Shown here: piece by piece, positions 2,927-26,136 of the stretch
Numbering within the stretch: the stretch's first letter is position 1
Layout: every line of letters begins with the position of its first letter
Assembly: GCA_902826215.1 (NCBI GenBank)
Contig: CADEDY010000016.1
Span: forward strand, 3,109 to 67,108
Direction: 5' to 3'
Origin: an uncultured Bacteroidota bacterium
GTDB taxonomy: Bacteria; Bacteroidota; Bacteroidia; Flavobacteriales_F; PHOS-HE28
DNA length: 64,000 nucleotides
Notes under the pieces: model-generated
What the model was told of the DNA's origin: nothing
Databases searched by the model: none
The model's input: only the letters and a program-made list of their open reading frames with translations
Position numbers and translations under genes: made by a program

Positions 2927-3085
2927 CTTATTACGTGAAAAAGGGCGGGAAGGTACATTGAACGGGTCCAGTTCGGTTCCATGGACGTTCTAAACGTCAA
3001 GAACAGCGGCAAGTCCCTGAGACTGAACGACCGATGACCCCGAAGTGGCTACGATCGCCAAGGAACCATTCGCGGCGGGCTAACT

Positions 3086-3403: not shown

Positions 3404-5218
3404 ATGGCCGACCTGATCCGCTTGCTGCCCGACCACGTCGCGAACCAGATCGCAGCCGGTGAGGTGGTGCAACGTCCTGCCAGCGTGGTGAAGGAACTGT
3501 TGGAGAACAGCGTGGACAGCGGTGCTACCCGCATCATCGTGGTGGTGAAGGATGCCGGAAGAACCTTGGTGCAGGTGACCGACGACGGCCATGGGATGAG
3601 TCCGATGGATGCGCGCGCCTGTTTCGAGCGACATGCAACGAGCAAGATCCGGGAGGCCGATGACCTGAGCTCCTTGCGCACCAAAGGCTTCCGTGGTGAG
3701 GCGTTAGCGAGCATCGCCGCCATCGCGCATGTCGAACTGCGCACCCGCGAGACCGATCAAGAGCTGGGCACCCGCGTGGTGATCGAAGGCAGTCGGGTGC
3801 GCACCCAAGAAGCCATGGCAGGCGCAGCGGGCACAACGATCGCCGTCCGCAACCTCTTCTACAACGTACCTGCTCGTCGGCAGTTCCTCAAGAGCGATGG
3901 GGTGGAGTTGAAGCACGTGTTGGAGGAATTCCATCGCGTGGCCTTGGCACATCCCGAGATCGCCTTCCAGTTCGTCCACAACGACCACGAGGAATTCCAT
4001 ATGCCCGCCGGATCGGAGCGGCAACGGATCGTTCACCTCTTCGGCCGCAAGTACGATGAGCGCTTGGTGCCTGTTGAAGAGCACACCGAGTTCTTGGGCG
4101 TCACGGGCTTCGTTGGCAAACCTGAATTCGCCAAACGATCTCGCGGCGAGCAATACTTCTTCGTGAACCGTCGCTTCATCCGCAGCAACTACCTGGATCA
4201 CGCGGTGCGCAAGGCGTACGACGAATTGGTGTCCCGGGAGAACTACCCTTCGTGGTTCCTCTTCCTGGATCTGGATCCCGCGCAGATCGACATCAACATC
4301 CACCCCACCAAAACGGAGATCAAGTTCCGCGATGACCGGACGGTGTATGCCATCGTGCATGCAGCGGTGCGTCGAGCCTTGGGTCGGTTCAACATCGTGC
4401 CCAGTTTGGACTTCGAACCGGAACCCGCCATCCTCGCTGCCTTCTCGGGGCAACAAGCGCAGGCTGCGCCGCCCCGCGAAACCGTCCCTGCTTGGCGTCC
4501 GCAGGACCTCGGCGCATTCAGCGCGCCGCCACGCCAGAGCAGCGAAGGTTGGCAGCAGCTGTTCGATGTGGACAGCCCCGCTCCTACTGTCGCACCGGAG
4601 TTGGAAGGCACACCGTGCATCATGCCCTCACGTGAGCATGAAGGCATGCCCGGTGAACGGCCGGTCTTCCAACTGCACGGCACTTACATCATGGCCCAGT
4701 TGCGCAGCGGCTTCATGGTGGTCGATCAGCAACGTGCACACGAACGCATTCTGTATGAGCGCAACCTGAAGTTGCTCGAACAAGGTGCAGGACTCAGTCA
4801 AACGGAGCTCTTTCCGCGCCACGTGGAATTGAACAGCGGCGACCTGGCCTTGGTACAGGACGTCCTCCCTGAATTGCGCAGCCTGGGTTTCGATCTGGAA
4901 CTCTTCGGCGGGCATACGGTGCAGGTGAACGGCATGCCGGCCGAAGCATCGGACGAAGACCCGACGAAGTTGCTCGAGGATCTGCTCGAACAGTTGAAGA
5001 ACGAGCGCGGCACCTTGCGTCAAGAGCGTCATCACATTCTTGCACGCAGTATGGCGCGCAGCACCGCGATCCGTCCGGGACGTGTGCTCGCCACTGCAGA
5101 GATGCATGACCTGATCGATCGCCTCTTCGCTTGTGCGATGCCCTATACCACGCCCGGTGGTCGGCCTACGCTGATCACCTACGGGCTCGATGAACTGAAC
5201 CAACGATTTGAACGCTGA
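3404..5218 (+). CDS. mutL: DNA mismatch repair protein MutL
   Basis: N-terminal GHKL ATPase motifs (IAAGEVVQRPASVVKELLENSVDSGAT, DDGHGMS), 604 aa, and a conserved C-terminal dimerisation region. Confidence 0.93.
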   Translation: MADLIRLLPDHVANQIAAGEVVQRPASVVKELLENSVDSGATRIIVVVKDAGRTLVQVTDDGHGMSPMDARACFERHATSKIREADDLSSLRTKGFRGEALASIAAIAHVELRTRETDQELGTRVVIEGSRVRTQEAMAGAAGTTIAVRNLFYNVPARRQFLKSDGVELKHVLEEFHRVALAHPEIAFQFVHNDHEEFHMPAGSERQRIVHLFGRKYDERLVPVEEHTEFLGVTGFVGKPEFAKRSRGEQYFFVNRRFIRSNYLDHAVRKAYDELVSRENYPSWFLFLDLDPAQIDINIHPTKTEIKFRDDRTVYAIVHAAVRRALGRFNIVPSLDFEPEPAILAAFSGQQAQAAPPRETVPAWRPQDLGAFSAPPRQSSEGWQQLFDVDSPAPTVAPELEGTPCIMPSREHEGMPGERPVFQLHGTYIMAQLRSGFMVVDQQRAHERILYERNLKLLEQGAGLSQTELFPRHVELNSGDLALVQDVLPELRSLGFDLELFGGHTVQVNGMPAEASDEDPTKLLEDLLEQLKNERGTLRQERHHILARSMARSTAIRPGRVLATAEMHDLIDRLFACAMPYTTPGGRPTLITYGLDELNQRFER

Positions 5219-10449: not shown

Positions 10450-12633
10450 CTACTCCTTCACGAAAGATGCGTACTCCCAACCACCATCGGAACTTCGCAC
10501 CCCGAAATGGTAGACCCCGGCCGGAAACCGCTCAACGTCCAAGTCCAAACGACGGACAGACCCTTTCCATCCATGAACGACCCTGCCATCGATCGTGGTG
10601 ATGCGTGACTCAATGATGAATGTGTTGTTCGGCAGTTCGATGAACACTCGGTTCTTGGCGGGGTTCGGGTAGAGCATTGGGCTTGATCCGATCCGCTCTG
10701 TGATGTCGGTACTGAACTCTGCCACCAGCACGCTGGGCTCGGTGATCACCGGTGGGTTGAAGTCGAAGTAGATGTTGGTGATATTCTGGATCGCCGTACC
10801 AGCCGAAAGCGGCTGTTTTGGGCGGATGCGGAAACTGATGAGGCCATGGCTCATCGGCTCGTTCACATTGCTATCCGGGAGCAGGATGTTGGGGAAGATG
10901 AACTTCAAAGTGCCTTGACCCTGCACACTCCAGATATGGGCATGTGAGGCGCTCACCAACGAGATCGAAGCTGGGTCAAGCGTGGCCGGAAGCGTGTCCG
11001 TGACAACAATGGTGAAAGCCGTGTCCGTTCCCGTATTCTGGTAGCGGATCACATAGTCGATCCACTCATCCTGATCGATGAAGTAGAGTTCATTACTACC
11101 ACGGGTGCTGGTGTAGGCGGTCTTGTCGTTGGGATCAAAACTGCCGGTGACGGTGATCGACGCTGATGCGGTGTTGTTGCTCACGTCCCCATCCGTGTTC
11201 GCGACAGCAATTGTGGCACTTGCCAGCAGTTCAGTACCGATGAGGCCAACATCGGGCGGCACCTGCAGTTGGATCTGGTAGTCGCGGTCCTGGAAAAGGT
11301 CGAGCGCGGATCCGTTCCACGTGATGGTGTTACCGCTGACCGTGCTGGGTGTCGGGGTCGCGCTGATGTAGCTCAACGTTGGATCGAATGTGAGCGTGGT
11401 CGTTGTGGCCCCACTTGAGGAGGAGGATAGATTCTCCACATGCACCGTATGGTGCACTTGGAAACCGGGCCGCGCTGGGCCCGACGCCAGGCTGATGGCA
11501 ACATCCAAGGGGATCGTGGCCTGATGCCCGATATTGGCTATGGTATTGGCGCCGTTCACCGTAGCGCCTGCCGGACAGCTCTGCGCAATGGCCGCAACGC
11601 TGGTGGTCAGTGTGTAACTGCCGTTCGGCACCACCACGGAATAGCCTCCGTTGGATGTGGTATAGATCGGCCCCGGTTGTATCTCCACCACCACGTTCGT
11701 GGCGTTTGCTTCGGTATCGATACAGTCGCTGTTGTAGTCCATGTACGTGCTTCCGGAAATACTGCCGCATGTGGGCCCGAGATCGGGGATCGTCACGAGG
11801 ATGCTATCGGTCGTACATCCCCCTCCCTGAAGCAATGAGTATGTAAGAGCAAGGCGATACAAAAGCCAGTAGTTCCCCGGCTCCAAATAGCCGAATGCGT
11901 ATACGTCCGGAGCGACGGTCTCCAAGTTGGTCTCCCACCCTTCGTACTCTGTGCTCCCCTCTGGCTTCAGGATATAGTACATATCCCCCATCGTCGTGGG
12001 CGTGGTGACGAAGGTGACCTTGCCGGTCCCTTGGCTGGTGCAGGAGCCTTGCACATCCACCACGGTGAAGCTGGGCCACACGGTAATGGGGTAACCGGCC
12101 GTGAAGTTCAAGGTGCCAGAGCATCCGTTCACATCCCAAAAGGTCACCGATTGACTGCTGCCGGGAGCAATGGACCCAGGATCCAGATACCAGTTGTTCG
12201 GACCGGCCGGTGGTGGCACTTGGGCAATGATCCCCAGCGAGGAACTCCAGGGGCTCACGTCGACGGGTATTCCATGTGGCCCTGGAGGAAAGAAGAACTC
12301 GTGATAGTTCTGTCCAGGGCAATATGGGTGGGGATAGTTGTAGTCAAGTGTACCGTAATCCGCGCTGATCACCGTGGCCTGTTCCGTGACCTGCGTGCCA
12401 ACGAAGTCGGTGACAGTGACACTGTACGTGCCCGAGCCCAGGTTGCTTATCCCTTCCGTGGTCTCACCACCGCCCCAGAGGTAGGTGTAGGGTGGTACTC
12501 CACCGGATACCGCCGCGTAAACAGATCCGTCCGCATACGAGCATGTCTCGTTCTGCACCTGCAAGTCCACTGTCAGCGCCCATGCTGTCGTTGATACGAA
12601 GAGGTGCGCGCAACCAAATAGTGCTCTTTTCAT
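10450..12633 (-). CDS. T9SS type-A sorting-domain protein with N-terminal SprB repeat (array paralog 1)
   Basis: Signal peptide. SprB-type repeat CSYADGSVYAAVSGGVPPYTYLWGGG...GTYSVTVTD. CG-ISG...DC SdrD-B/Cna-B-like module. GSFDPNDK, WIDYVIRYQNTGTDTAF, ILLPDSNVNEP and FDFNPPVITEPSVLVAEFST motifs. C-terminal LYPNPAKNRVFIEL...YHFGV tail typical of Por_Secre_tail. Confidence 0.85.
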   Translation of the reverse strand: MKRALFGCAHLFVSTTAWALTVDLQVQNETCSYADGSVYAAVSGGVPPYTYLWGGGETTEGISNLGSGTYSVTVTDFVGTQVTEQATVISADYGTLDYNYPHPYCPGQNYHEFFFPPGPHGIPVDVSPWSSSLGIIAQVPPPAGPNNWYLDPGSIAPGSSQSVTFWDVNGCSGTLNFTAGYPITVWPSFTVVDVQGSCTSQGTGKVTFVTTPTTMGDMYYILKPEGSTEYEGWETNLETVAPDVYAFGYLEPGNYWLLYRLALTYSLLQGGGCTTDSILVTIPDLGPTCGSISGSTYMDYNSDCIDTEANATNVVVEIQPGPIYTTSNGGYSVVVPNGSYTLTTSVAAIAQSCPAGATVNGANTIANIGHQATIPLDVAISLASGPARPGFQVHHTVHVENLSSSSSGATTTTLTFDPTLSYISATPTPSTVSGNTITWNGSALDLFQDRDYQIQLQVPPDVGLIGTELLASATIAVANTDGDVSNNTASASITVTGSFDPNDKTAYTSTRGSNELYFIDQDEWIDYVIRYQNTGTDTAFTIVVTDTLPATLDPASISLVSASHAHIWSVQGQGTLKFIFPNILLPDSNVNEPMSHGLISFRIRPKQPLSAGTAIQNITNIYFDFNPPVITEPSVLVAEFSTDITERIGSSPMLYPNPAKNRVFIELPNNTFIIESRITTIDGRVVHGWKGSVRRLDLDVERFPAGVYHFGVRSSDGGWEYASFVKE

Positions 12634-12639
12634 GGTGTG

Positions 12640-14907
12640 TCAGTTCTTGATGAAGCGCTCGCGTGCGGTTGTTCCATTGGTCAGGTCCGCGATAAGCAGG
12701 TAGGCTCCGCTCATCAGGTTGTTCACATCCACCCTAGCGCTGCTCGTGCGCAGGTTCGAACGAAGGACCTCCCGTCCATCCGCAGCAACGATCCTTATCG
12801 AAATGATCCCCGTATTGGAGGTCACAGTCAAAAGATCGGTAGCCGGATTCGGCAGCAGGTTCAACTGTCGTGGAGATGTCGTCGAACCTTGACCGATCGA
12901 AGTACTGAACTCCGCCACCAGCACGCTCGGCTCCGTGATCACTGGCGGGTTGAAGTCGAAGAAGATGTTGGCGATGTTGGAGATCTCATCGCCCGGCAAC
13001 AAGGGCAGACGCGGACGGATGCGGAAGCCCACGAAACCGTGACTGCGTGGCTCATTGATGTTGCTGTCCGGAAGCTGGATGTTCGGGAAGTAGAACTTCA
13101 GGGTGCCGGAATCACGCAGTTCCCAGGAGAACGTGTGCGAAGCCGCACCCATGACGATGCTTCCAGGATCCAGGTTCGCCGGCAATGTGTCGGTGATCAC
13201 CACGTTGAAGGCGGTGTCCGTACCTGTGTTCTGGAAGCGGATGGTGTAGTCGATCCACTCGTCGGCACCGAGGAGCCACGCGTTGGTGTTGCCGGTGCTG
13301 GTGGTAGCTAGCTTGTCATTGGGGTCGTAGGCGCCGGTAATGGTGCGCTGCAACAGGTAACTATTGTTGGGAAGGTCAGCATCGGTATTGCTGGTGCTCA
13401 CCGTGGCCGTGGTGAGCAAGTCCGTTCCGAGCAGGCCCACGTCAGGTGGCACTTGGAAACGTAGTTGGACGGTGCGCGATTGAAAAGCGTTGGTGAAAGA
13501 AAAGTCTGCACCCGTCCAGGTGAGTACGTTGCCGGCCGTGGTGGTGGGCGCCGGTGTGGCGAAAACCAACCCCAGCAGCGCATCATGCTCCAACATCAGC
13601 GATACCGTGCCCGCAGCATCGGCGGTCAGGTTGTTCACCTGCACAGCTACCTGATACTCGAATCCAGGCCGCGCCGCACCATCGCTCATCGTCACCTGCA
13701 TATCCAGTTGCGCGCCCACCTCCATGGGCACATGCACATTGTTGTTCACGGCTTGCTGCACCACCTGCACCACCGGGCACGATTGCTCCAGCACGGGGTG
13801 CTCGGCGAAGACCTCGTAGGTACCATAAGGCACCTGCACGCTGTACTGGCCGCTGCTGTTGGTGTTGCCGAAATAGGGACCGGGCTCCAACCGCACCACC
13901 GTGGCCGGCACGTTGTTCTCGCTGGTGTTCGTCGCGCAGTTGGAGTTATTATCCATGAACACGCGACCGCTCACCACACCACAATCGCCGGGCAATGCGG
14001 GCACCAACACTTGGATGGAATCGCGGCACTGGTAGTCGTACCAGTCCGTGAAATCGAAGTTGAAGGTCTGCCCGGAGACATGCACCCAGTAGTTCCCCGG
14101 CGCAAGACCGGTGAAGGTGTAGGGTGTACCGATGAAACCTGCGGGTTCGATCCCGGTCTGGGAACAACCGCCCGCTACGACCTCCCCCGCGCTGTTCTTC
14201 AGCCGGGTCACCACCTGCGGATAGAGCCCAAAACCGCCAAAGGACATGGTGATGCTACCGCTCGCCCCGTTGCTGCACGAACCCGCTACATCCACCACTT
14301 GCATCACAGGGAGCGTCTCCGGGCCATTGAGGCCGACCCAGGCATCCAGGATACAGCCGTTCTGATCCTCGAACTGCAGTGGATAGGAACCGTAGCCCGG
14401 GAACATCAGGGCCCGATAGGTGAACTGCCCGCACTCATCCAGTTGCTGCGAGGAGTCGATCACATCGGGACCCCAGATGTCCACGATCCCGTTCTCGAAC
14501 ATGTTCACCACGGCGATGGGTGGCTCACCGGGACATGTGGCGATCGCTTGTATGGCCAGGTTGACCGCACCATCGATGACCACCTCGATCGGACCGGTAC
14601 TGGCCATGTCCATCTGGGAATCGACCACGGTGAGGGAATAAACACCAGGATAAAGACCCTCCAGTGCCAGGTTGGCGACCGACGAACTGCTTTCTTGGAA
14701 CACCTCACCCCCGGCATCATACCAGGTCACGGTGAACGGGGGCAGGCCGCCCACCACATCCACGTAGATGGAACCATCCGGTCCACCACAAAGGGACGGC
14801 CCCACAGCAGCCACAAAGAGCTCGATGGCGTGGAGTGGCGCCATACCGAGCAAGATGCCCACCAGTGCGGTCGACGCGCGCAGCCAGTATGTATCGATGG
14901 ATGTCAT
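12640..14907 (-). CDS. T9SS type-A sorting-domain protein with N-terminal SprB repeat (array paralog 2). Start trimmed to ATG 14907; the ORF track extends to 14949.
   Basis: Same architecture as paralog 1. MTSIDTYWLRASTALVGILLG is signal-like. C-terminal LLPNPATDLLTV...GAYLLIADL CTD. Confidence 0.8.
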   Translation of the reverse strand: MTSIDTYWLRASTALVGILLGMAPLHAIELFVAAVGPSLCGGPDGSIYVDVVGGLPPFTVTWYDAGGEVFQESSSSVANLALEGLYPGVYSLTVVDSQMDMASTGPIEVVIDGAVNLAIQAIATCPGEPPIAVVNMFENGIVDIWGPDVIDSSQQLDECGQFTYRALMFPGYGSYPLQFEDQNGCILDAWVGLNGPETLPVMQVVDVAGSCSNGASGSITMSFGGFGLYPQVVTRLKNSAGEVVAGGCSQTGIEPAGFIGTPYTFTGLAPGNYWVHVSGQTFNFDFTDWYDYQCRDSIQVLVPALPGDCGVVSGRVFMDNNSNCATNTSENNVPATVVRLEPGPYFGNTNSSGQYSVQVPYGTYEVFAEHPVLEQSCPVVQVVQQAVNNNVHVPMEVGAQLDMQVTMSDGAARPGFEYQVAVQVNNLTADAAGTVSLMLEHDALLGLVFATPAPTTTAGNVLTWTGADFSFTNAFQSRTVQLRFQVPPDVGLLGTDLLTTATVSTSNTDADLPNNSYLLQRTITGAYDPNDKLATTSTGNTNAWLLGADEWIDYTIRFQNTGTDTAFNVVITDTLPANLDPGSIVMGAASHTFSWELRDSGTLKFYFPNIQLPDSNINEPRSHGFVGFRIRPRLPLLPGDEISNIANIFFDFNPPVITEPSVLVAEFSTSIGQGSTTSPRQLNLLPNPATDLLTVTSNTGIISIRIVAADGREVLRSNLRTSSARVDVNNLMSGAYLLIADLTNGTTARERFIKN

Positions 14908-14945
14908 TGTCCTATGTTCTGTTCGTTGGTCCTGCATTCGGTCGC

Positions 14946-17171
14946 TCATCGTTTCACGAAGCGCACTGTGCTGCGGCTCCCATCGTCGGTCAGAAGCTCC
15001 AGCATATAGACCCCGGTGGACAAGGCCTCCACGTTAATTGTCGCACTGGTGCCCGGCATGCGCTGTTCCAACATCGATCGGCCATCAATACCCCGAACGA
15101 TCAACATGCCTGTGTGCAGGTCATCGCCACTCCTTCGAACCATGAGCCAACCTTCGGTCGGGTTCGGCGTCACCAGCAGTTGTGCAAGGCTCTCCGGTTC
15201 CTCCACACCCGTACTGAACTCCGCCACCAACACGCTCGGCTCCGTGATCACCGGCGGATTGAAGTCGAAGAAGATGTTGGCGATGTTCTCGATGCTCGTT
15301 GTTGCAGCAAGTGGAAGTCGTGGCTTGATTCGGAAGGAGACAAAGCCATGGCTAAGAGGCTCGTTCACGTTGCTATCCGGCAGTTGGATGTTGTAGAAGG
15401 CCCAGCGCAACACGTTGCCATCGCGAATGGATAGCGCATGCGCATGTGATGATGCACCTGCTTGGAAGGTGCCCAGATCGAGCTCCGTTGGGATGGTGTC
15501 GGTCACCACGATGTTGAATGCGGTGTCGCTGCCCGTATTCTGGAATCGTATGGTGTAGTCGATCCATTCATCCACATCCATATAGTACAGGTCGTTGCTT
15601 GAGCCACTGCTCGTGCGTGCCGTCTTGTCGTTCGGATCGTAGCTGCCGGTCACCGTGGTGGTGAGTGCGGCGGCATTGTTCGCAGGTACCGCATCGACAT
15701 TGCCTGTGGTGAGGCTCGCGTTGAAGACCAGGTCCGTCCCGAGCAGGTTGATGTCCGGCGGAACCTGTAACTGCACATGCACTGTTCGTTCTTGGAAGGA
15801 ACTGAATGCAGCGATGTTCCACGTGAGCGTATTGCCGGACACGTTCGGTGCCGGGAAGGCGGAAACGAAGGAGAGCACCGGGTCGAAGGTGATGGTGAGC
15901 GTGCTGGCTCCGGTGCTGGACAAGGTGTTGTTCGCCACTCGAGCTGTGAGGGCCATTTGGAACCCGGGCCGTGCAGCACCGCTCGCTAGCGATACGCTGG
16001 CATCCATCGGCACGAGTGCGGTATCGGCCACATTCACCGTTTGGAACGGAACACCCGAAGACAAGGTGAACGGTGCGGGTGCTGAAATGCAATGATCCTC
16101 CAGAACGGCACTCTGCTGTTGTATGGTGTAAGAGCCCAATGGCAGGTTGATGCCGTACAGACCACCGCCGGTGATCGTATAGATCGGGCCGGGGAGTATC
16201 TCAAGCACCACACCGCTAGCTCCGGGCTCGTTGCCTTGCCGAACGCAGTCCTCGTTGTCGTCCATGAACACGGTGCCACTGATGTTGCCGCAACCGGGGC
16301 CGAGGTCCGGTATGGTGAAGGGAGTGCTCACCCGGCACCCGCTGCTCGCCAAGAATGTGCTCTCGCTCATGAATTGGATGAGCAGGTAGTCTCCGGGCGG
16401 CAGAGCGTATGAGTTCGTGCTCACCGCGTTCCCTGCTCCGAAGGAGGTGATGTACTGGTTGTTGATGGTTTCGATCTTCACTTGGGTGAACTGGCTGTGG
16501 CCTTCAAGCCCCGTTTGGAAGGTGATGGACCCGTTGTTACCACCGGAGCATGCACCTTGTATCTCCAGGATGGTCAGGTCGGGCCATTCGATCGGGTAAC
16601 CGATGTATTCGTTCAAGGTGCCCGTACATCCGGCGCCGTCGCTGAACGTGTAAGTCTGCCAACCACCGAACTGTGGTGCGGGCCAACTGGCGGCATAGAA
16701 GGTATCGACCGGGAAGAGCCACTCGTAATAGATGGTCTCTTGCATGGTCTGTCCGTTCACGGTGTAGGGCAACGGACCCATATACTGACCTAAACCCGTG
16801 TTCCCATTCCCCGGTCCGTCCAGCAGCACATCCGTGAACGTGTTGCACAGTCCGGTCGTCCCGCCGTCGGCGATGTCCGAGAGCGCGTAGGGTTGACCTG
16901 AAAGAACGATCTCACCTGTCGCCTGATCATTGTTGAAGTCGGTCACTGTCACCGAATAGGTACCCGGTGGTAGATCGGAAACAACAGCGGTGGTGGCTCC
17001 GGTGCTCCACAAATAGGCATACGGGCCCACACCACCAGTGGCATTGGCTTGGATGTTGCCGCTGGGATAATTGCACGTTGGGTATCGGTTCACCCAAATG
17101 TTGACCGTTACGGCTTGTGCTGCGATATGCACAGCGAAAAGTAGGGGCAGAAGGATGCTTCTCATGGTCAT
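14946..17171 (-). CDS. T9SS type-A sorting-domain protein with N-terminal SprB repeat (array paralog 3)
   Basis: Same architecture, 741 aa. Its start overlaps the paralog 4 stop (ATGA). Confidence 0.85.
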   Translation of the reverse strand: MTMRSILLPLLFAVHIAAQAVTVNIWVNRYPTCNYPSGNIQANATGGVGPYAYLWSTGATTAVVSDLPPGTYSVTVTDFNNDQATGEIVLSGQPYALSDIADGGTTGLCNTFTDVLLDGPGNGNTGLGQYMGPLPYTVNGQTMQETIYYEWLFPVDTFYAASWPAPQFGGWQTYTFSDGAGCTGTLNEYIGYPIEWPDLTILEIQGACSGGNNGSITFQTGLEGHSQFTQVKIETINNQYITSFGAGNAVSTNSYALPPGDYLLIQFMSESTFLASSGCRVSTPFTIPDLGPGCGNISGTVFMDDNEDCVRQGNEPGASGVVLEILPGPIYTITGGGLYGINLPLGSYTIQQQSAVLEDHCISAPAPFTLSSGVPFQTVNVADTALVPMDASVSLASGAARPGFQMALTARVANNTLSSTGASTLTITFDPVLSFVSAFPAPNVSGNTLTWNIAAFSSFQERTVHVQLQVPPDINLLGTDLVFNASLTTGNVDAVPANNAAALTTTVTGSYDPNDKTARTSSGSSNDLYYMDVDEWIDYTIRFQNTGSDTAFNIVVTDTIPTELDLGTFQAGASSHAHALSIRDGNVLRWAFYNIQLPDSNVNEPLSHGFVSFRIKPRLPLAATTSIENIANIFFDFNPPVITEPSVLVAEFSTGVEEPESLAQLLVTPNPTEGWLMVRRSGDDLHTGMLIVRGIDGRSMLEQRMPGTSATINVEALSTGVYMLELLTDDGSRSTVRFVKR

Positions 17172-19453
17172 TGCTTCAACAGTGAAGTACGTATGGTCCT
17201 GCCTTCAGTGGTATGAACCACGAGCGTGTAGCTGCCGGCAGCTAAACCACCGATATCGAATGAGGCGCTCGTTCCGATGCATTGGATCTCGGCTACCACA
17301 CGGCCATCCAACGCTGTAAGTACGAGCCGTTGCAACGCGTTGCTATCCACCCGGACCGTGACCGCGTCCTTGGCCGGATTCGGATACACGGACAGTGCGG
17401 CGGCCGTCTCTGGAACCCCGCTCACCCCCGTACTGAACTCAGCCACCAGCGCGCTCGGCTCGGTGATCACGGGTGGGTTGAAGTCGAAGTAGATATTGGC
17501 GATGTTGGAGATCTCATCGCCCGTCAACAAGGGCAGACGCGGACGGATGCGGAAGCCCACGAAACCGTGACTGCGTGGCTCATTGATGTTGCTATCCGGC
17601 AGCAGGATGTTGGGGTAATAGAACTTCAACGTGCCTTGGTCGCGGAGTTCCCATGTGAAGGTGTGCGAGGAAGCGCCCATGATGATGCTTCCGGGATCCA
17701 GGTTGGATGGAAGGGTATCCGTGATAACCACCGTGAAGGCGGTATCGGTGCCGGTGTTCTGGAAGCGGATGGTGTAGTCGATCCATTCATCCGCGCCAAG
17801 CTGCCACAGGTCCGTGTTACCGCTGCTGGTAACGGCCAGCTTATCGTTGGGGTCATAGCTACCCGTCACGACCACACCGTACACAGCGGTGTTGTTGGAG
17901 AGGTCGGCATCCACATTCGCTGTGATCAAGGTGGCTGTGGATTGAAGCGTGGTGCCCAGCAGACCCACATCGGGTGGCACCTGGAACCGCACTTGGAAGG
18001 TCCGCTCTTGGAAAGGCTGCGTAAGGGTGAAGGCCGGTGCCGTCCAGGTCAGTACGTTTCCCGTGATGGATGTTGGGACATACGTGGATGAAAGAAAGCT
18101 GAGCACAGGGTCCACCTCCAGTGTAAGCGTCACGGTGCCGGTGCTGGAAGGGGTCAGGTTGCGCGCATGGATGCCGTATTGTAGTTCGAACCCGGGGCGG
18201 GCTGCACCGCTGGTCAGGCTCACCATCGCATCCATCGGAACCCCGCCGGAGCAGGCCGTGTTCGCTTGTTGCATGGCTGTGGAACTGATCGTGAAAGCCG
18301 CCGGACAACTCTGCTCGAACAGCGGATGCTCCTCGGTGATGGTGTAGGAGCCAAAAGGCAGGGTGGCAGCATACGAGCCGAATTGATCGCTTAGCAGGTA
18401 GATGGGTCCGGGATCGACCCGCACAATGCTGTTGGGGATGTGGTTCTCGGAACCGAGGATGCAGTTGGCATCGTCGTCGATGAACAGCCTGCCGGTCAGG
18501 TTGCCGCAATCCTGGGAGACCACTGGTATGGTGAATGGGATGACGCCTTCGCACGCCGTGACCAGTGAACCGATCTGCTGGCCGTAACCGCTCGGATCGG
18601 TGGTCCAGACCAGTTCGAAGTCGCCTGGCGGCAGGTTCGCGAAGGTCCTCACGCCCGCATCGCTCGGTTGTCCGAATAGGATGGGGTCCATACTGGCCAC
18701 GCAGTCCACCGATTGCCCTACTGGCCGAATGTAAAGACCGAACGTGTTGAACGAATTGATGCCTACCGCAACGCGTAAGGTCCCTGCAGCACTGTTCTGG
18801 CAACTCGGGGTGATGTTCATGATCTGCAAGCTGGGTGGTTCGAAGGGTGCGGGAACGGTCACGGTCGCGGTACCTGCACATCCGTTCGCATCGCTGTAAT
18901 TCACGGTCACATCGGATCCTGGAGGTGCATCGATGAATATCACGTCGTAGACGATGTATCCTGACGGGTCGCTGCAGTTAAGGACCTGTCCGTAGTTCGA
19001 TACGGCATCGCCCCAATACGAGTAAGGTCCAGGTCCGTAGGGTGAGGAGGGATCGTAGGGTTCCACAAGGCTGTTGCCGGAATACCTGATCAATTGGGGT
19101 AGCCCACCAATACAATAGCTGGCACCGATCCCGAACCCACCGAACGGTTCCCAGGAGGAACCATAGCCATCGATCTCATCGATCACCACCTCCGCCGTAG
19201 CCTCCTCCATGGCGGCATCGGTCACGATCACCGTGTAGGTGCCCGGTGATAGTCCGATCACTGAATTCCCAATGGGCAGCCCATCGCTCCATGCATAGCT
19301 GTAGGGCATCACGCCATCGGTAGCGATCGCGTAGGCCCTGCCGTTCGCCCGACCGCAGTTGCTGTGCGCCTGCACACTGGTGGTGACGCTCAGTGCAGCG
19401 GAAGCATGAACGCTGAACAAAAGCAAAGAGGCGAGCAGTAGTTGCTTGTTCAT
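17168..19453 (-). CDS. T9SS type-A sorting-domain protein with N-terminal SprB repeat (array paralog 4). Start trimmed to ATG 19453 (MNKQLLLASLLLFSVHASA).
   Basis: Same architecture. The C-terminal half is near-identical to paralog 2 at the protein level and, in places, at the nucleotide level. Confidence 0.8.
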   Translation of the reverse strand: MNKQLLLASLLLFSVHASAALSVTTSVQAHSNCGRANGRAYAIATDGVMPYSYAWSDGLPIGNSVIGLSPGTYTVIVTDAAMEEATAEVVIDEIDGYGSSWEPFGGFGIGASYCIGGLPQLIRYSGNSLVEPYDPSSPYGPGPYSYWGDAVSNYGQVLNCSDPSGYIVYDVIFIDAPPGSDVTVNYSDANGCAGTATVTVPAPFEPPSLQIMNITPSCQNSAAGTLRVAVGINSFNTFGLYIRPVGQSVDCVASMDPILFGQPSDAGVRTFANLPPGDFELVWTTDPSGYGQQIGSLVTACEGVIPFTIPVVSQDCGNLTGRLFIDDDANCILGSENHIPNSIVRVDPGPIYLLSDQFGSYAATLPFGSYTITEEHPLFEQSCPAAFTISSTAMQQANTACSGGVPMDAMVSLTSGAARPGFELQYGIHARNLTPSSTGTVTLTLEVDPVLSFLSSTYVPTSITGNVLTWTAPAFTLTQPFQERTFQVRFQVPPDVGLLGTTLQSTATLITANVDADLSNNTAVYGVVVTGSYDPNDKLAVTSSGNTDLWQLGADEWIDYTIRFQNTGTDTAFTVVITDTLPSNLDPGSIIMGASSHTFTWELRDQGTLKFYYPNILLPDSNINEPRSHGFVGFRIRPRLPLLTGDEISNIANIYFDFNPPVITEPSALVAEFSTGVSGVPETAAALSVYPNPAKDAVTVRVDSNALQRLVLTALDGRVVAEIQCIGTSASFDIGGLAAGSYTLVVHTTEGRTIRTSLLKQ

Positions 19454-19457
19454 CCGC

Positions 19458-21632
19458 TCAAGGGTTGATGATATGAACGACCGATCGGAAGGTGCTGCCC
19501 GAAGTGGACATGGCCTCCACGATGTAGGTGCCACTGGCGAGTCCTGCGGTGTCCACCCAAATTCGCTCGTTCGGGACGGAGACGACCCTCACCACCCTTC
19601 CATGCAGGTCTCGGAGACCGAGCTGTGCGGTCCTTTGCCCGGAAAGTGACACATGGAAGCCAGTTGTGGTGGGGTTGGGGCTGATGAGCATCGCTTCGGA
19701 CGAATGCGTGCCCACCCCCGTACTGAATTCGGCTACCAGCACGCTCGGTTCCGTGATCACCGGCGGGTTATAGTCGAAGTAGATGTTGGCGATGTTCTCG
19801 ATCACGGTGCCTGGAAGGAGCGGCAGCTTGGGCCGCATCCGGAACTTCACGAGGCCATGACTGCCCAGTTCGTTGCTGGCGCTGTCAGGAAGTTGGATAT
19901 CGTCAAAGCGCCACTCGATAACACGGCCGTGTTTGAAAGAAACGCTGAAGGGATGGGATGCCGCACCTTGCTCGAAGGAGAGCATATCCAACTCAGGAGC
20001 GATGGTGTCCGTGATCACCACGAACTCCGCTGGGAAGGTGCCGGTGTTCTGGAAACGGATCGTGTAATCGATCCATTGGTCCTGGTCGATGAAGTAGAGA
20101 TCCTCGCTGGCTCTGGTACTCGTTACTGCGCGCTTGTCGTTGGGGTCGTAACTGCCCACCACGATGTTCTGTTCATCGGCCGTGTTGTTCAGTAGGGTCG
20201 ATTCGGCGAGCGGGTTGGAAAGCCCAGCGGTCGTGTACAAGACAAGTCCCAACGGGGTTCCCACAGGCACTTGAACGTCGATCAAAAGGGTCTGGATCGC
20301 GAAACTCTCCAAGGCCGACAGGTCCCAAATGAGTGTCTGACCGGCAACGGAGGTCGGTGCCACACTCGCAGCGAGGAAGGTCAAGGTCGGGTCCAATTGC
20401 ACGGTGAGTTCCAACGGCCCGCTTATCTGCGGCGAGAGGTTGCGGGCGTATACGGCGTAGGATGTTTGGAACCCAGGTCTGAATACACCGCTGGCGAGAT
20501 CGACGGAAAGGTCCAATGGCACCGTTGACCCATTGGCCAGGTCGATCGTTTGTTGATCGCCAGACACCGTGAACGGGACAGGTTGCACAGCAGGGCAGAT
20601 CGGGGCCAAGGTGGGGTCGGTCTGTTCCAAGGTGTAAGAACCATCCGCCACTCCGAAGAGGAAATGACCGGTTCCATCCGTGATGGCGATCTCGCTACCA
20701 GGTTCGATCAGTAGCGTGCTATAGGGCACGCCGACCTCATTCGGACCATGCACACAATCTCCATCCATATCGAACCAACTGGTACCGCTCACACTACCGC
20801 AGAAAGGGCTGAGGTCAGGGACGTTCACCCATAGGGTATCGTAGGTGCATAGGCCCGGATCCGCCGCCTCGCCCGTATGTCCCAACCACCAATGCACGCC
20901 ATAGTAGCCGGGTTCCAGTCCGGTGAAGAGGACATTGCCGTCCAGATCAGGCTGTTCGGCCTGGAACTGGTCCACGCCGTCGCTGCGTATCAAATGGATC
21001 CATGTTGAGAAGGCCGGTGGGGGGCCAGTGGAGTGAACGGTGATAGCCCCATCGGCCACAAGGTCGCAGGCCGGTCCAACATCCGCAATGGAGAGGGCCG
21101 GCCAATTCCCTGCGTAACTGACCCCAAAGGTGGTGATGGTACCCGCACAACCATCGCCATCGCTTACCGTGTACACTTCACCAGAGCTTGCTCCGGTGGT
21201 GAAAACATAACGATTAGAAGCGTCGGGAAGGAGCATGGCGGGCAACCCATCCACATACCATGGAGCGTGAGGCTCACCGTCGAACAGGGGATCATCGAGG
21301 ATATTGGTGGGGCCTGTGCAGAACGCATAGCCTCCGCCGCCTTGCAACTGGTAGGGCTGTGCCAGGATCGTTACGCTCTCCATCACCTCTTCGGCCAGCG
21401 CGTCGACCACGGTCACCGAATAGGTACCCGCAGGAACATCCAGGATCCCGGTGCCCGTCGCCCCGTTGGACCATTGGTAGGTATACGGCGGTGCGCCCCC
21501 GGAAGCGATGGCGAAGGCTGATCCGGTAGCGTACGTGCAGACGGCATCGGTATGTTGTATCGTCACCGTAAGGACCGCGGTCGCTGCCATGGGCGAAGCA
21601 ACGATCAAGAGGGCTAACAGCTGGCGTGTCAT
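19458..21632 (-). CDS. T9SS type-A sorting-domain protein with N-terminal SprB repeat (array paralog 5)
   Basis: Same architecture, 724 aa. SprB repeat CTYATGSAFAIASGGAPPYTYQWSNG. CTD ISPNPTTTGFHVSL... Confidence 0.85.
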   Translation of the reverse strand: MTRQLLALLIVASPMAATAVLTVTIQHTDAVCTYATGSAFAIASGGAPPYTYQWSNGATGTGILDVPAGTYSVTVVDALAEEVMESVTILAQPYQLQGGGGYAFCTGPTNILDDPLFDGEPHAPWYVDGLPAMLLPDASNRYVFTTGASSGEVYTVSDGDGCAGTITTFGVSYAGNWPALSIADVGPACDLVADGAITVHSTGPPPAFSTWIHLIRSDGVDQFQAEQPDLDGNVLFTGLEPGYYGVHWWLGHTGEAADPGLCTYDTLWVNVPDLSPFCGSVSGTSWFDMDGDCVHGPNEVGVPYSTLLIEPGSEIAITDGTGHFLFGVADGSYTLEQTDPTLAPICPAVQPVPFTVSGDQQTIDLANGSTVPLDLSVDLASGVFRPGFQTSYAVYARNLSPQISGPLELTVQLDPTLTFLAASVAPTSVAGQTLIWDLSALESFAIQTLLIDVQVPVGTPLGLVLYTTAGLSNPLAESTLLNNTADEQNIVVGSYDPNDKRAVTSTRASEDLYFIDQDQWIDYTIRFQNTGTFPAEFVVITDTIAPELDMLSFEQGAASHPFSVSFKHGRVIEWRFDDIQLPDSASNELGSHGLVKFRMRPKLPLLPGTVIENIANIYFDYNPPVITEPSVLVAEFSTGVGTHSSEAMLISPNPTTTGFHVSLSGQRTAQLGLRDLHGRVVRVVSVPNERIWVDTAGLASGTYIVEAMSTSGSTFRSVVHIINP

Positions 21633-23884
21633 TCTTGGATGATGAAGCGTTGGCGGGACTCGGTACCTTCCGTGTATCGTACCACAAGGAGATAGGCTCC
21701 TGGTTGTAGACCGGACACATCCAGACTTGAAAAGGCTGTCCGGGTGTAGGGGATGTCGACCTCACGACCATCGCTGGCGACCACGCGCAAGCTGGAGATC
21801 GATGAAGTCGCTGTGATGTTCAGCCGATCTTTCGCGGGGACAGGCCAGACCTGAAAAGTATTCACCGGATATCCTGCCACCCCCGTACTGAACTCCGCCA
21901 CCAGCGCGCTCGGTTCGGTGATCACGGGTGAGTTGAAGTCGAAGTAGATGGCCGCCGTGTTCTCCAAGGCATCGCCGGGCAAAAGGCCCACTCGTGGTTT
22001 CAAGCGGAAGGCCACGAAGCCCTGGCTGCCGAGCAGATCGGTGGTGCTATCGGGAAGCAGTATGTCGGAGAAGGTGAACACCAGTTCGCGGGCGCCGCCG
22101 AAGGAAGGTGTGTAAGGATGTGAAGCGCCGAGGATCTCCAGGCTTTCAATGTCCAGGTCCGCTTCCAGTTCATCGCGGATGACCACCGTGAACGCAGTGT
22201 CCGTGCCGGTGTTCTGGAACCGGACGAGGTAATCCACCCACTGGTCCTGGTCCAGGAAGAACTGCGTGCTGCTGCCACTGACGTTGGCGATACCCTGCTT
22301 GTCGTTGGGGTCGTAGCTGGATACGATGGCATGGGTGATGGCATACGTGTTGTTCGTCGTGTTCGGCTCTGCGGTGCTGCTGGCCACAGTCGCTGTTGCG
22401 GTATGCAGAGTTCCCAGCAAGCCCGGGTCCGGCGGCACTTGCAGATCCACATTCAACCACCTTTGCTCAAATGGCCCAAGCACTGGAATGCTCCATTCCA
22501 CCTGACCTGGCACGCTGGTGTTGGCACCCGATGAAGCGCTGATGAGCGGGAAGAGCGGATCGTATGCCAAGGAAACGCTGACGTTTTCGCTGGGGTGCCC
22601 GGTACTGTTGATCACTCGAACGGAATAGCGGAATGGAAAGCCTACCCGCGAGGTGCCTGAATAGAGGTACGCGCGCATGTCGAAGGGTGTCAGGAGCGAA
22701 TCGGCGAGGTCCAGGACCACGTTGGTTCCGCTGCTCACGGTGATGGGGACCGGTGCGGTTCCCGGACAGAGTTGAACAGCATCCGTGTTGAGCTGCTCCA
22801 GGTCATAGCCGCCGTATGGCAGCGCGATGGAATAGGTACCATCGCTCGCAGTAATGCCGTAAAGCGGCCCCGGGGTCACACGCATCAACTGGTTGGGCAT
22901 ACCCACCTCAAGACCATCCTGAACGCAATCTTCGTCCGTTTCGAAGTGCAGTGTACCACTCACGGTGGCGCAGGCCGTGCCCAGATCCGGAACGGTCACA
23001 GGCACTTCGTAAATGCAAGGTGATTGACCAGAACCCACCGATTCGATCGTGGTGAACCGCAAGGTCCAATCGCCAGGATGCAGGTTGAAGAACTGGAGAT
23101 CGTCGGTGCCCATGCTGTACAAGATGTTCGGCGATGGCACGACGACAGCTCCCTGGTCGTCCACGGCCCGCAGGATCCAGGAGTCCTCGCTCATAGGAGG
23201 ATCGGTCACAATGGTGACCTGTCCCGAGATGGTACCATCGTCCGCACTGCTGCAACTGCCCGTCACTTCATCCAAGGTCACAACGGGTTCATACAAAGTG
23301 GGTATCGTTATGCTTGTACTTCCGGACCCACATCCATTGATCACAGACAACTCGATCGTTTGCCCGGCGCAGGCACCTAGGATCTCGTAGCGGTGGTAGT
23401 AGCTCAGGTTATCCGGCTCATCGTTATCAACCTCCACGACCGAGAGCGTCGGGGTGGTGCTAATGCTATAGCCACCTGCCTGCTGGAACAGGTACAAGCG
23501 GAAACCGCCATTGCATTCGCCTGTGCAAGGGGCCAGACCCCCGTAACCGATATCAGCAAGCAGCATGGCTCCTGTTCCCGGTGCTCCACCCACATAGACC
23601 TCGCCGGTCGCACTGTTCTGTGAGCCAGTGTCGTCAGTGACGGTCACCGTATAGAAACCGGGGGCAAGGTTAAAGATCTCCGGGTCGGTGATCCCGCCGC
23701 CCCAGTCGTAGGTATAGGGTGCGACCCCACCAGTGGCAGAGGCAAAAATGGCGCCGTCATCCCCATTGCACGAAGTCGCATAAACGTCGAGAAGGACTTG
23801 GAACGCCGATGCCTCCATCGCCACCACCGAGAGGGCGATGGACAAGGCCGTGGTGCGCATAGCGCTCGTGGGAGGCAGCTTCAT
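21629..23884 (-). CDS. T9SS type-A sorting-domain protein with N-terminal SprB repeat (array paralog 6)
   Basis: Same architecture, 751 aa. ATGA overlap with paralog 5. Confidence 0.85.
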   Translation of the reverse strand: MKLPPTSAMRTTALSIALSVVAMEASAFQVLLDVYATSCNGDDGAIFASATGGVAPYTYDWGGGITDPEIFNLAPGFYTVTVTDDTGSQNSATGEVYVGGAPGTGAMLLADIGYGGLAPCTGECNGGFRLYLFQQAGGYSISTTPTLSVVEVDNDEPDNLSYYHRYEILGACAGQTIELSVINGCGSGSTSITIPTLYEPVVTLDEVTGSCSSADDGTISGQVTIVTDPPMSEDSWILRAVDDQGAVVVPSPNILYSMGTDDLQFFNLHPGDWTLRFTTIESVGSGQSPCIYEVPVTVPDLGTACATVSGTLHFETDEDCVQDGLEVGMPNQLMRVTPGPLYGITASDGTYSIALPYGGYDLEQLNTDAVQLCPGTAPVPITVSSGTNVVLDLADSLLTPFDMRAYLYSGTSRVGFPFRYSVRVINSTGHPSENVSVSLAYDPLFPLISASSGANTSVPGQVEWSIPVLGPFEQRWLNVDLQVPPDPGLLGTLHTATATVASSTAEPNTTNNTYAITHAIVSSYDPNDKQGIANVSGSSTQFFLDQDQWVDYLVRFQNTGTDTAFTVVIRDELEADLDIESLEILGASHPYTPSFGGARELVFTFSDILLPDSTTDLLGSQGFVAFRLKPRVGLLPGDALENTAAIYFDFNSPVITEPSALVAEFSTGVAGYPVNTFQVWPVPAKDRLNITATSSISSLRVVASDGREVDIPYTRTAFSSLDVSGLQPGAYLLVVRYTEGTESRQRFIIQE

Positions 23885-26136
23885 CGTGTCGTGTGGTTGA
23901 GCATGGAGTGGTGAAGCGTCCCATCCGTGAAGGTCGCTTGCAGCAGGTAACTCCCTGCGGCCAGGGATGCGATATCGAGCTTGGTCGTTCTTCCGCTCAC
24001 CGGTGTGCGCAGTACTTCTCGTCCATGGAGGTCAAGAAGCCTAAGGTGTTTGATCATGCCTTGGATCGATCTCACCTCCACATCATCAAAAGCCGGGTTG
24101 GGGAATACGAGCAACGGTTGCTGCTCCAGCGCTCGCACCCCCGTACTGAACTCCGCCACCAGCACGCTCGGCTCGGTGATCACCGGTGGGTTGAAGTCGA
24201 AGTAGATGGCCGCCTCGTTGCTGATCTCCGTTCCAGGAAGCAGGCTGCTCACCGGGCGTATGCGGAAAGTGATCACCCCATGGCTGGCCGCCTCGTTCGT
24301 TCCGCTATCCGGTAACAGAATATTGTCGAAATGCCACTCCACCTTGCGACCGGGCATCAAGTTCAAGGTGAAGGGATGTGAACCCGGACCTTGCTCGAAA
24401 GTGCCCATATCCAGTTCCGCCGGAAGCACGTCACGCACGACCACGGTGAACGCGGTGTCCGTGCCTGTATTCTGGAAACGGATCGTGTAGTCGATCCATT
24501 CGTCCGTGTCCAATAAGTAGAGGCTTTCACTTGATCGGCTGCTGGTGAGTGCAGTCTTGTCATTGGGGTCATAGCTGCCCGTTATGGTGCCCCAACTAAC
24601 AGCGGTGTTGTTGGCAAGATCGATCTCTGCGATCGGTTGCGAGATAGAGAACGAATGCGAGAACGGTTGCCCGATCAGGAGCACATCAGCAGGTACTTGC
24701 ACTTGAATGTGCAAGTTGGTCCGTCCGAAATCCGGAACAGCAGGAAGCCCGATCCATGAGACCACGTTACCAGTCACACTCGTTGGCGTAGGTGTGGCAT
24801 CGATGTAACTCATTTGCGGGTCGAAGGTCAACGTGGCATCCATGAGGCCAGCGGCCATGCCCGACGGCTTCTCCACGAGGGCCCATAAGTTCTGGACGAA
24901 TCCCGGGCGTGCAGCGTTGGAGTAGAGTTCCGCTTCAAGGTCCAACGGGATCAAACTGCTATCCGCCACGTTCACCATCTGGTTCACGCCACTGACGGTC
25001 ACCGGTATTGGTTGCACCGGCGGACAAACCGGGTAAAGATCGGATCCTGTTCCCGACACGTTCATGGTGTAACTGCCATTCGCCAGGTAGCACCCATAGG
25101 TCCCGCTGGGGTTGGCCACGGCGTAGTACGGGCCAGGCAGGAACTCGATCAGCCGGAAGCCAAGGCCGGAATCACCGGGATCCTGTGCGCAATCCTGATC
25201 GTGGTCCAGAAATAGGGATCCGCTCACGAGCGCGCATTGACCGAGCAGATCCGGCACTTCCACGTACATGGAATCCACGCAGAAGAGCGGATACAGGGGA
25301 TCGTTCGGTTCGGTGCCGAGCTGGTCCGGATCGGTGATGACCCAATACGCACCAGCAGCAAGGTTGGGGAAGGTGAATGTCGAGTTGTTCGATACCAGTC
25401 GGCTCCCATATGTTCCAGCAAGATTTGGAGGGATCTGTCCATCCAGCGTGCGCACATTCACGCGGAAAGCCTGGTTGGCGTCAGCCCCACTAACAGCCAT
25501 GTTGATGCGGCCGTTGCTACCACCGCAGGCACCTTGTACACTCACGATCGAAACATTCGGTTCCACCCATTCCGTGGAGAACTGAAGCGTGGTAGAACCA
25601 GGGCACCCAGCAGCATCGGTCCAGTTGATCGTGTTGTATGTACCCGGTGTTACATCCATCCACACACCGATGTAGCTATATAGGAAAGCGTTGAAATGAT
25701 CACTGAAATTCCCGAAGAGGATCGCCGGAGATGTTACGTTGTGCGGCTCCGGTCCATTGTGCGGATCCTCCAAGTGCAAGTAGGTGTATGGATAATCGCC
25801 CGGACAATGGACCAAGCCACCGAAACCTGGGACATTTACCTCTTGGTGCGAAGTCGTGACCAGTATCTCACCACTTCCCGTTGCCATATCGCCGATGCCA
25901 TCAGTGACGGTCACGGTATACATTCCTGCAGAAAGGAATTCGATGTACTCCGTGGTGGCGCCATTGCTCCATTGAATGGTATACGGCGGCGTCCCACCCA
26001 TCACCACGGCGTTCAACGTCCCCAGCGCTTGTCCGCAAGCCGCATCGGAATATTTCTCGACGACCACTGTAACGGCTGCACATTCCGTGGCTAGGAATAA
26101 GGACATCAGAGCGGTAAGGGCAGTTGCACGGATCAT
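23881..26136 (-). CDS. T9SS type-A sorting-domain protein with N-terminal SprB repeat (array paralog 7)
   Basis: Same architecture, 751 aa. ATGA overlap with paralog 6. Confidence 0.85.
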   Translation of the reverse strand: MIRATALTALMSLFLATECAAVTVVVEKYSDAACGQALGTLNAVVMGGTPPYTIQWSNGATTEYIEFLSAGMYTVTVTDGIGDMATGSGEILVTTSHQEVNVPGFGGLVHCPGDYPYTYLHLEDPHNGPEPHNVTSPAILFGNFSDHFNAFLYSYIGVWMDVTPGTYNTINWTDAAGCPGSTTLQFSTEWVEPNVSIVSVQGACGGSNGRINMAVSGADANQAFRVNVRTLDGQIPPNLAGTYGSRLVSNNSTFTFPNLAAGAYWVITDPDQLGTEPNDPLYPLFCVDSMYVEVPDLLGQCALVSGSLFLDHDQDCAQDPGDSGLGFRLIEFLPGPYYAVANPSGTYGCYLANGSYTMNVSGTGSDLYPVCPPVQPIPVTVSGVNQMVNVADSSLIPLDLEAELYSNAARPGFVQNLWALVEKPSGMAAGLMDATLTFDPQMSYIDATPTPTSVTGNVVSWIGLPAVPDFGRTNLHIQVQVPADVLLIGQPFSHSFSISQPIAEIDLANNTAVSWGTITGSYDPNDKTALTSSRSSESLYLLDTDEWIDYTIRFQNTGTDTAFTVVVRDVLPAELDMGTFEQGPGSHPFTLNLMPGRKVEWHFDNILLPDSGTNEAASHGVITFRIRPVSSLLPGTEISNEAAIYFDFNPPVITEPSVLVAEFSTGVRALEQQPLLVFPNPAFDDVEVRSIQGMIKHLRLLDLHGREVLRTPVSGRTTKLDIASLAAGSYLLQATFTDGTLHHSMLNHTTR

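Follow-up and report, generated by a model that had tools for sequence, protein, structure and literature searches.

Bacterial multigene families are known to exchange sequence among their own members by ectopic (interlocus) gene conversion, with familiar examples in the tufA/tufB pair, the opa genes of Neisseria and the bab/sab outer-membrane protein genes of Helicobacter pylori. Segmental, non-reciprocal copying between related surface-protein sequences also underlies the programmed antigenic-variation cassettes of Neisseria (pilE/pilS), Borrelia (vlsE) and Treponema (tprK). Here we consider a stretch of 64,000 nucleotides (nt), hereafter the window, from contig CADEDY010000016.1 (assembly GCA_902826215.1) of an uncultured member of the Flavobacteriales (Bacteroidota), in which ten paralogous genes, p1 to p10, form a single array. 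Two non-adjacent members, p2 and p4, share a nearly identical tract of about 100 nt within the part of each gene that encodes the domain DUF7619. We argue that this tract is the footprint of a recent ectopic (inter-paralogue) gene conversion, a non-crossover patch of ~100 nt between p2 and p4, and we place the probability of this reading at roughly 85%. Such a footprint had been proposed in the original prediction, made from the letters of the window, and it is borne out by a GENECONV-type test, by native sequence on either side of the patch, and by the absence of the tract from the orthologous gene pair in an independent assembly.

The locus has much in common with families of the opa and bab/sab type, namely short non-crossover patches between diverged paralogues, native flanks, surface-protein genes, and alleles whose mosaic structure changes from strain to strain. 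Unlike these families and tufA/tufB, however, it is a co-oriented ten-gene array of predicted type IX secretion system (T9SS) cargo in an uncultured environmental organism, its events fall at one junction between a domain and the C-terminal sorting domain (CTD), and family-wide homogenisation is lacking. The likeness to pilE/pilS, vlsE and tprK ends with segmental copying, as the array has no expression-site/silent-cassette layout and conversion has affected a conserved stalk domain rather than a variable region. Cassette-type antigenic variation was accordingly rejected on architecture: ten complete open reading frames (ORFs) with leaders and CTDs stand in one array, with no truncated donors among them.

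Within the Bacteroidota, the T9SS adhesins Kgp, RgpA and HagA of Porphyromonas gingivalis undergo domain rearrangement and allelic exchange, and their mosaic structure, which is unrelated to strain phylogeny, has been attributed to recombination and gene conversion (PMC5266723). These mosaic adhesins are the closest precedent in the phylum, being likewise T9SS-CTD surface proteins with modular, mosaic C-terminal adhesin regions. The P. gingivalis set differs from the window array in its cleaved adhesin domains and DUF2436 (here SprB, DUF11 and DUF7619), in its dispersed loci, and in belonging to a host-associated pathogen. A further likeness is to the isopeptide stalks of fibrillar adhesins (CLIPPER/DUF11, DUF7619 and CnaA/CnaB-type domains; PMC12617251), which the window proteins recall in their Pfam matches to DUF7619 and DUF11, their beta-sandwich model, and their fold matches to immunoglobulin-like (Ig-like) domains of adhesins and pilins. 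Unlike sortase-anchored adhesins with such stalks, the window proteins would be exported by the T9SS, as predicted from the CTD, and their isopeptide triad is putative. The p2/p4 patch adds one more case to a process already familiar from surface-protein families of bacteria, and it represents no new mechanism or kind of system.

The Shared Tract in p2 and p4

At its maximal extent the tract occupies positions 12968-13065 in p2 and 17496-17593 in p4 (minus strand in both cases, offset 4528), over which 97 of 98 nt are identical, with a longest exact run of 69 nt (12997-13065). In p2 this core encodes residues 629-661 (SNINEPRSHGFVGFRIRPRLPLLPGDEISNIAN), within DUF7619; the partner tract spans positions 1861-1958 of the p4 gene when the ATG at 19453 is taken as its start. 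The sole mismatch, at 12996, is a G in p2 and a T in p4 on the plus strand, which in gene sense sets CCG (Pro) against ACG (Thr). Extending the tract to 13080 brings three more mismatches, or 4 in 110. The earlier claim of a single mismatch in ~95 nt thus stands at offset 4528 (1/95), but the register that accompanied it, which paired 12971 with 17501 (offset 4530), is 2 nt off and yields 72 mismatches in 95. As a separate observation, the Thr codon of p4 (window position 17524, p4 gene position 1930) replaces a Pro that is kept by every other family member and by all other aligned p2/p4 homologues. Mutation after the conversion, a remnant of mismatch repair and a sequencing error are all conceivable origins for it.

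In gene sense the tract lies directly upstream of a segment of ~70-85 nt that encodes NIYFDFNPPVITEPSVLVAEFST and is conserved at the nucleotide level in all ten paralogues. This segment, which we call the box, occupies 12902-12967 on the minus strand in p2, at the 3' end of DUF7619, where it covers the last strand and the linker/CTD junction. Across the DUF7619-coding block of p2 as a whole (12902-13330, minus strand), no other pair is as similar as p2 and p4, which have 67 mismatches in 429 nt. Their identity is ~78% in 13066-13330 and 89% in 12902-12967; with the core removed, the block is 80% identical between them, vs 61-73% for other pairs. The other 44 paralogue pairs are only 45-71% identical over the core columns when all ten genes are aligned by codon. 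By blastn, p2 and p4 match at 78.7% over 638 nt, and no other pair exceeds 74.4%. Outside the DUF7619 block their identity in the codon alignment is ~45%, the same as for other pairs, and the flanks of about 80% identity that had been described beforehand are therefore confined to the block.

The pronounced similarity of p2 and p4 across DUF7619 is also what would be seen if the tract were the relic of a recent p2/p4 duplication, the remainder of which had diverged rapidly under positive selection. The differences in the flanks are, however, mostly synonymous, with 41 of the 61 in the 5' flank at third codon positions, and the gene bodies sit at the paralogue background of 45% nucleotide identity. 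Moreover, the duplication that separated p2 from p4 must be old, because each gene has its own orthologues elsewhere, down to 65-69% amino-acid identity. A recent duplication is refuted by the synonymous-site pattern, and we accord it next to no probability.

Chance can be dismissed on two grounds. The third-position mismatch rate in the DUF7619 flanks of p2 and p4 is 0.42, and yet there is no synonymous difference in the 32 codons that lie wholly within the tract; a run of 32 consecutive third-position matches has P ~3e-8, or ~3e-6 once start positions are allowed for. The second ground is a GENECONV-style permutation, in which the maximal matching, mismatch-free fragment at polymorphic sites was compared with that obtained after permuting columns. 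For p2/p4 the global p was <=0.002 over the whole alignment (500 permutations), <=0.0005 within the DUF7619 block (2000 permutations) and <=0.0005 for the third codon positions of that block only, each value being the resolution limit of the test. In the third-position design, 31 consecutive polymorphic sites match in p2/p4, against a permuted maximum of 23. The mosaic therefore survives the objection that codon bias might explain it, since it is significant on third positions within the conserved domain alone. With the test confined to the domain, no pair other than p2/p4 was globally significant. Pairwise flags were raised for p8/p9, p2/p9 and p2/p8 at the DEWIDYTIRFQNTGTDTAF motif, and for p6/p7 in the box (95% over 79 nt); these fall on the most conserved motifs, lack global significance within the domain, and were set aside.

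Comparison with Independent Assemblies

The window was compared with 28 related loci (L001-L028) drawn from metagenome-assembled genomes (MAGs) and metagenome contigs. The relatives are annotated as MAGs of uncultured Flavobacteriales, one of them being the activated-sludge isolate 'OdNE_18-Q3-R46-58'. Orthologues of p2 for which DNA was at hand share 86, 83, 81 and 69% amino-acid identity with it, and p4 has alleles or orthologues at 99, 79, 76, 72 and 66%, with DNA for the 99% cluster (L010, L011 and L012). Two of these assemblies are particularly informative. L010 (GCA_029560615.1) is collinear with window positions 19927-16471, with 45 mismatches and no gaps, and L011 (GCA_016718655.1) is collinear with 21964-12902 and keeps the gene order p5-p4-p3-p2.

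Against the p4 alleles of L010 and L011, the window p4 differs at only 28-30 of 2286 nt, and these differences are far from evenly spread. A patch of 91 nt (17441-17531, minus strand), which overlaps both the box and the 3' third of the neighbouring tract, holds 16 of the 28 differences from the L010 allele (binomial P=8e-16; scan-statistic permutation p<5e-5). The flanks of the patch are 99.5-100% identical, and the p4 CTD is 100% identical in five assemblies. Beyond this patch and the box of p5, where 7 further differences fall within 84 positions, the window and L010 differ at a background of 0.3-0.6%. Since p4 sequence is native on both sides, in the L010 and L011 alleles and in the CTD of five assemblies, the tract is an internal patch and not a chimeric join.

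The tract is, in addition, specific to the lineage of the window. Between the p2 and p4 of L011, ~19 of the 98 core positions differ; p2 orthologues are 72-86% identical to the window p2 in the core, and the p4 alleles of L010 and L011 depart from the tract at 6 of 98 positions, all of them outside its 5' 62 nt, which are the same in the p4 alleles of the window, L010 and L011. A 43-mer from the core was found among GTDB representatives in the L011 genome only, as a single copy in p4, and had no match in JGI metagenomes. Because the L011 pair differs and the 43-mer is single there, the p2/p4 identity is not the expression of a conserved nucleotide element. The comparison of strains that had been suggested alongside the original prediction thus argues for a patch, with the relatives' p2 lacking the tract and their p4 flanks native, and against both a misjoin and selection at the nucleotide level.

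An origin in assembly or polishing, through mis-recruited reads, a consensus of mixed strains or the chimeric joining of paralogues, still deserves to be weighed, as the window comes from a metagenome-derived contig, its relatives are themselves MAGs and metagenome contigs, and the haplotype in the 3' third of the tract is in no other assembly. This account has to contend with the internal position of the patch, whose p4 sides are ~99.5-100% like independent alleles and whose neighbouring p2 box matches the L011-type p2 allele at all but 2 of 70 positions, and with the presence of the 5' 62 nt in the p4 of two other assemblies. Cross-mapping of reads is also unlikely where the tract (98 nt) is shorter than a typical read and the flanks are only ~80% alike, and analogous tracts, described below, are present in unrelated assemblies. 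On balance we regard an artefact as decidedly improbable.

A separate observation concerns the array at large. Between the window and the same relatives (L011, L003, L023 and L028), divergence is uneven from gene to gene, amounting to ~0.5% in p4, ~3% (amino acid) in p3, ~6% in p5, and ~10% together with a replaced CTD in p2. This pattern suggests that allele-level recombination between strains may be superimposed on exchange between paralogues.

Direction of Transfer

The two ends of the tract do not tell the same story. In the 5' 62 nt, a derived GGT and a derived CGT are common to the three p4 alleles (window, L010 and L011) and to the window p2, and occur in no other family member, a distribution that would favour p4 as the donor. 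In the 3' 36 nt, the window p4 departs from the L010 and L011 alleles at six sites, of which five match the window p2 and the sixth (17524) is unique to the window p4. This would favour transfer from p2 to p4, or transfer from p4 to p2 after p4 had already changed, or a third donor. Polarity judged from p2 alleles is not decisive, given that every sampled p2 allele is 8-12% diverged from that of the window. For most of the tract, namely the 5' 62 nt, transfer from p4 to p2 is slightly favoured by the distribution of derived states.

Several of our results count against a conversion between p2 and p4, at least in its simplest form. First, the 5' and 3' parts of the tract point to opposite donors, and the pattern would require at least two events or an unsampled donor. 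Second, the haplotype of the 3' part (CCCTTGTTG[A/C]CGGGCGATGAGATCTCC) is absent from the 28 loci examined outside the window; a second carrier of the window haplotype was likewise not found in JGI metagenomes or GTDB representatives. Third, the pairwise homoplasy index (PHI), a check proposed with the original prediction and run here in our own implementation, gave no significant recombination signal on the ten-paralogue DUF7619 block (p=0.69 for all sites, 0.61 for third positions). By this measure there is no family-wide recombination signal within the genome of the window, and we read the null result as fitting the low power of the index for one short event among saturated sequences. Fourth, there is no sign of pervasive homogenisation, as paralogues are equally alike within and between genomes in this region (see below).

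The opposing polarities give some room to the idea that a third, unsampled donor, whether another paralogue or allele and possibly from the DNA of another strain, converted both p2 and p4, with no direct transfer between them. The 3' 36 nt are derived in both genes (6 of 36 positions vs p4 alleles, 6-15 of 36 vs p2 alleles) and unique to the window, and strain-level shuffling of alleles is evident from between-strain identities of 99.5% in p4, ~90% in p2 and ~94% in p5. Neither the window nor the 28 related loci, though, offers a candidate for such a donor. Two separate conversions would have had to begin and stop at the same positions, and in p4 alleles the 5' 62 nt are native sequence. We consider it unlikely, and retain a direct exchange between p2 and p4 as the preferred explanation.

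The Box and Further Exchanges at the DUF7619/CTD Junction

The box next to the tract has a distinctive conservation of its own. Taking the codons at which >=8 of the ten paralogues encode the same amino acid, we averaged codon identity over pairs of paralogues, with the expectation taken from codon usage. The observed value was 0.41 in the N-terminal region (expected 0.39), 0.55 in the 5' part of DUF7619 (expected 0.45), 0.56 in the core (expected 0.44) and 0.74 in the box (expected 0.46); for the CTD it was 0.34. When the window was compared with L001, L002 and L006, paralogue identity within and between genomes was 0.65 and 0.65 in the core, and 0.87 and 0.85 in the box. L002 belongs to a different species or genus than the window, its MiaB-like and Lgt proteins being 74% and 68% identical in amino acids. 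Because identity is equal within and between genomes, the box is a family-wide conserved segment and not a product of local homogenisation, and exchange in the array is sporadic and confined to short patches. Pervasive concerted evolution was rejected for the same reason.

The over-conservation of the box at synonymous sites, across paralogues and across genomes, raises the question of whether the adjoining tract might owe its identity to selection on the nucleotides themselves, for instance for an RNA or a regulatory element embedded there or under extreme constraint on codon choice, with no copying involved. The core speaks otherwise, as its synonymous sites vary among the p2 orthologues and p4 alleles compared above and the other eight paralogues are 45-71% identical there. 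A search of the tract against Rfam returned no family, and its predicted RNA folding is unremarkable (z-score -1.1 sense, -1.9 antisense), so that an RNA or regulatory element in the tract was rejected. Selection of this kind is, in our estimation, highly improbable as the source of the p2/p4 identity, and the patch is better understood as copied by gene conversion.

Relatives of the window hold further exchanges at the same junction. The box of p4 occupies 17423-17506 and that of p5 19713-19796 (both minus strand). The p4 alleles of L010 (2422-2486) and L011 (11948-12012) carry 65 nt that are 100% identical to positions 19732-19796 of the window p5, whereas the p4 box of the window is 100% identical over 71 nt to a p5-like fusion gene of L003 and resembles the p5-position box of L011 and L003. 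It thus appears that p4 and p5 have traded box types, depending on the haplotype. Immediately 5' of the core, the p2 alleles of L011 and L003 carry a p4-like segment, and the window p2 shares another state there with the p2 of L001, L002 and L006. In L014 (Ga0116158_10002414), the p4 orthologue has 353 nt in common with the paralogue next to it downstream (433-785 and 2682-3034), with 6 mismatches. This stretch stops abruptly at the DUF7619/CTD junction, and the body of the neighbouring gene is ~44% identical to any window paralogue. By its structure, the L014 stretch is probably an independent and larger conversion tract at the same site. A side observation from a more distant relative, L020, is a repeat between neighbouring family members (1-143 vs 2769-2911) that is 97.9% identical over 143 nt.

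Larger rearrangements have their end points at this junction as well. Two independent assemblies, L003 (ENA) and L028 (JGI), hold a p5::p4 hybrid that joins the p5 body, the box and a p4 CTD (100% identical), with one array unit fewer. The hybrid spans positions 1-1477 of L003 and 1-749 of the reverse complement of L028, corresponding to window positions 19713-20934 and 17168-17506. Its junction falls inside an 84-nt box (L003 1139-1222; L028 reverse complement 411-494) that aligns to both 17506-17423 and 19796-19713, and the whole looks like the outcome of an unequal crossover. Further along, collinearity of the window with L011, L003, L023 and L028 stops exactly at 12902, the end of the p2 box, beyond which the p2 CTD and the next gene differ. 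The window p2 CTD (12640-12901) and p1 have no counterpart in the relatives, whose p2 ends in a different CTD (46% nucleotide differences), with a p8-like gene coming next; over its final 70 nt the window p2 CTD is 83% identical to the p9 CTD (28359-28428). Alleles of p4 occur with three different CTDs, and p2 CTDs also vary between strains. Taken together, these comparisons show the DUF7619/CTD junction to be a recurrent hot spot of recombination. The earlier suggestion that the array is recombining is supported by these further exchanges in relatives, yet they are sporadic and leave neither a PHI signal nor homogenisation.

The Array and Its Products

The ten paralogues lie co-oriented and close-packed on the minus strand at 10450-32853, with operon-like spacing and several ATGA stop/start overlaps. 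They are p1 (10450-12633), p2 (12640-14949), p3 (14946-17171), p4 (17168-19453, or 19534 with the longer start), p5 (19458-21632), p6 (21629-23884), p7 (23881-26136), p8 (26133-28355), p9 (28352-30598) and p10 (30607-32853). The starts assigned mechanically are probably too long for p4 and p2. Homologues of p4 begin at the ATG at 19453 (MNKQ...), which we took as the start, and with the GTG at 19534 the gene would share 77 nt with p5; p2 begins at Met15 (14907), its likely start, in the database copy. Flanking the array are housekeeping genes for TraB/PrgY-family, MiaB-like, Lgt, inositol monophosphatase and MutL proteins. Among the annotated flanking genes there is no recombinase adjoining the array and no T9SS component, annotation having been limited to the flanks of the array. 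The MutL mismatch-repair gene is complete (3404-5218) and separated from the array by ~5 kb; mismatch repair acts as a limit on recombination where repeats have diverged.

All ten paralogues are complete ORFs of 724-788 amino acids with N-terminal hydrophobic leaders and CTDs. Overall identity among them is 33-43% in amino acids and 46-53% in nucleotides, values that argue for paralogues of considerable age. In each paralogue tested, the order of domains is a SprB repeat region, DUF11 (CLIPPER), DUF7619 and a T9SS type-A CTD. The CTD of p2 scores 43.4 bits against PF18962 (cut-off 27) and 44.1 against TIGR04183 (cut-off 23), and the CTDs of p4, p1 and p6 likewise exceed the curated cut-off. 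By domain content, the family would comprise T9SS cargo, probably adhesin-like secreted proteins.

DUF7619 itself is matched by Pfam PF24595 with E ~1e-41 over profile positions 1-128 of 133. In fibrillar adhesins it has been proposed to be a stalk domain related to CLIPPER and held by an intramolecular isopeptide bond (PMC12617251). An AlphaFold model of p2 residues 421-769 (pLDDT 89) has three beta-sandwich domains, with DUF11, DUF7619, a disordered linker and the CTD. In this model the core tract forms the two penultimate beta-strands of DUF7619, and the box its last strand and the junction of domain and linker. The best fold matches by Foldseek are Ig-like stalk domains of PrgB, AgI/II, BcpA, SdrD and Cna. 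Conserved in the family are the Lys of DPNDK and several invariant Asn of NIANIYFDFN, although on sequence evidence their spacing does not map exactly onto the published Lys/Asp/Asn triad. The model and fold matches are consistent with an Ig-like stalk domain, in which an isopeptide bond is predicted.

Implications for Surface-Protein Diversification

We propose that a short patch of homologous recombination copied ~100 nt between p2 and p4 without crossover, in the 3' half of DUF7619. The box, together with the moderately conserved domain around it, may supply the homology for RecA-type strand invasion between members of the array. The outcome would then be set by how the intermediate is resolved, and could be a short patch, a longer tract, the swap of a CTD module, or the loss of a unit by unequal crossover. 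One may go further and suppose that the box is kept as a dedicated recombination junction, at which arrays reassort their N-terminal modules for binding, parts of the stalk and the CTD as export tag, and change the number of units. We think this extension rather improbable; if it were true, the box would be a cassette-like device for the diversification of T9SS cargo, and the p2/p4 patch one of its by-products.

The p2/p4 tract offers a clean, population-supported case of short-patch gene conversion within a large tandem family of T9SS adhesin-like proteins, in uncultured Flavobacteriales of activated sludge. For annotation and binning, paralogue arrays that are mosaic between strains call for care with orthology calls and with strain-resolved assemblies. 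The case shows that sequence exchange, the swapping of export tags and the loss of units in these arrays take place at the DUF7619/CTD junction, which bears on how the surface proteome of the Bacteroidota diversifies.

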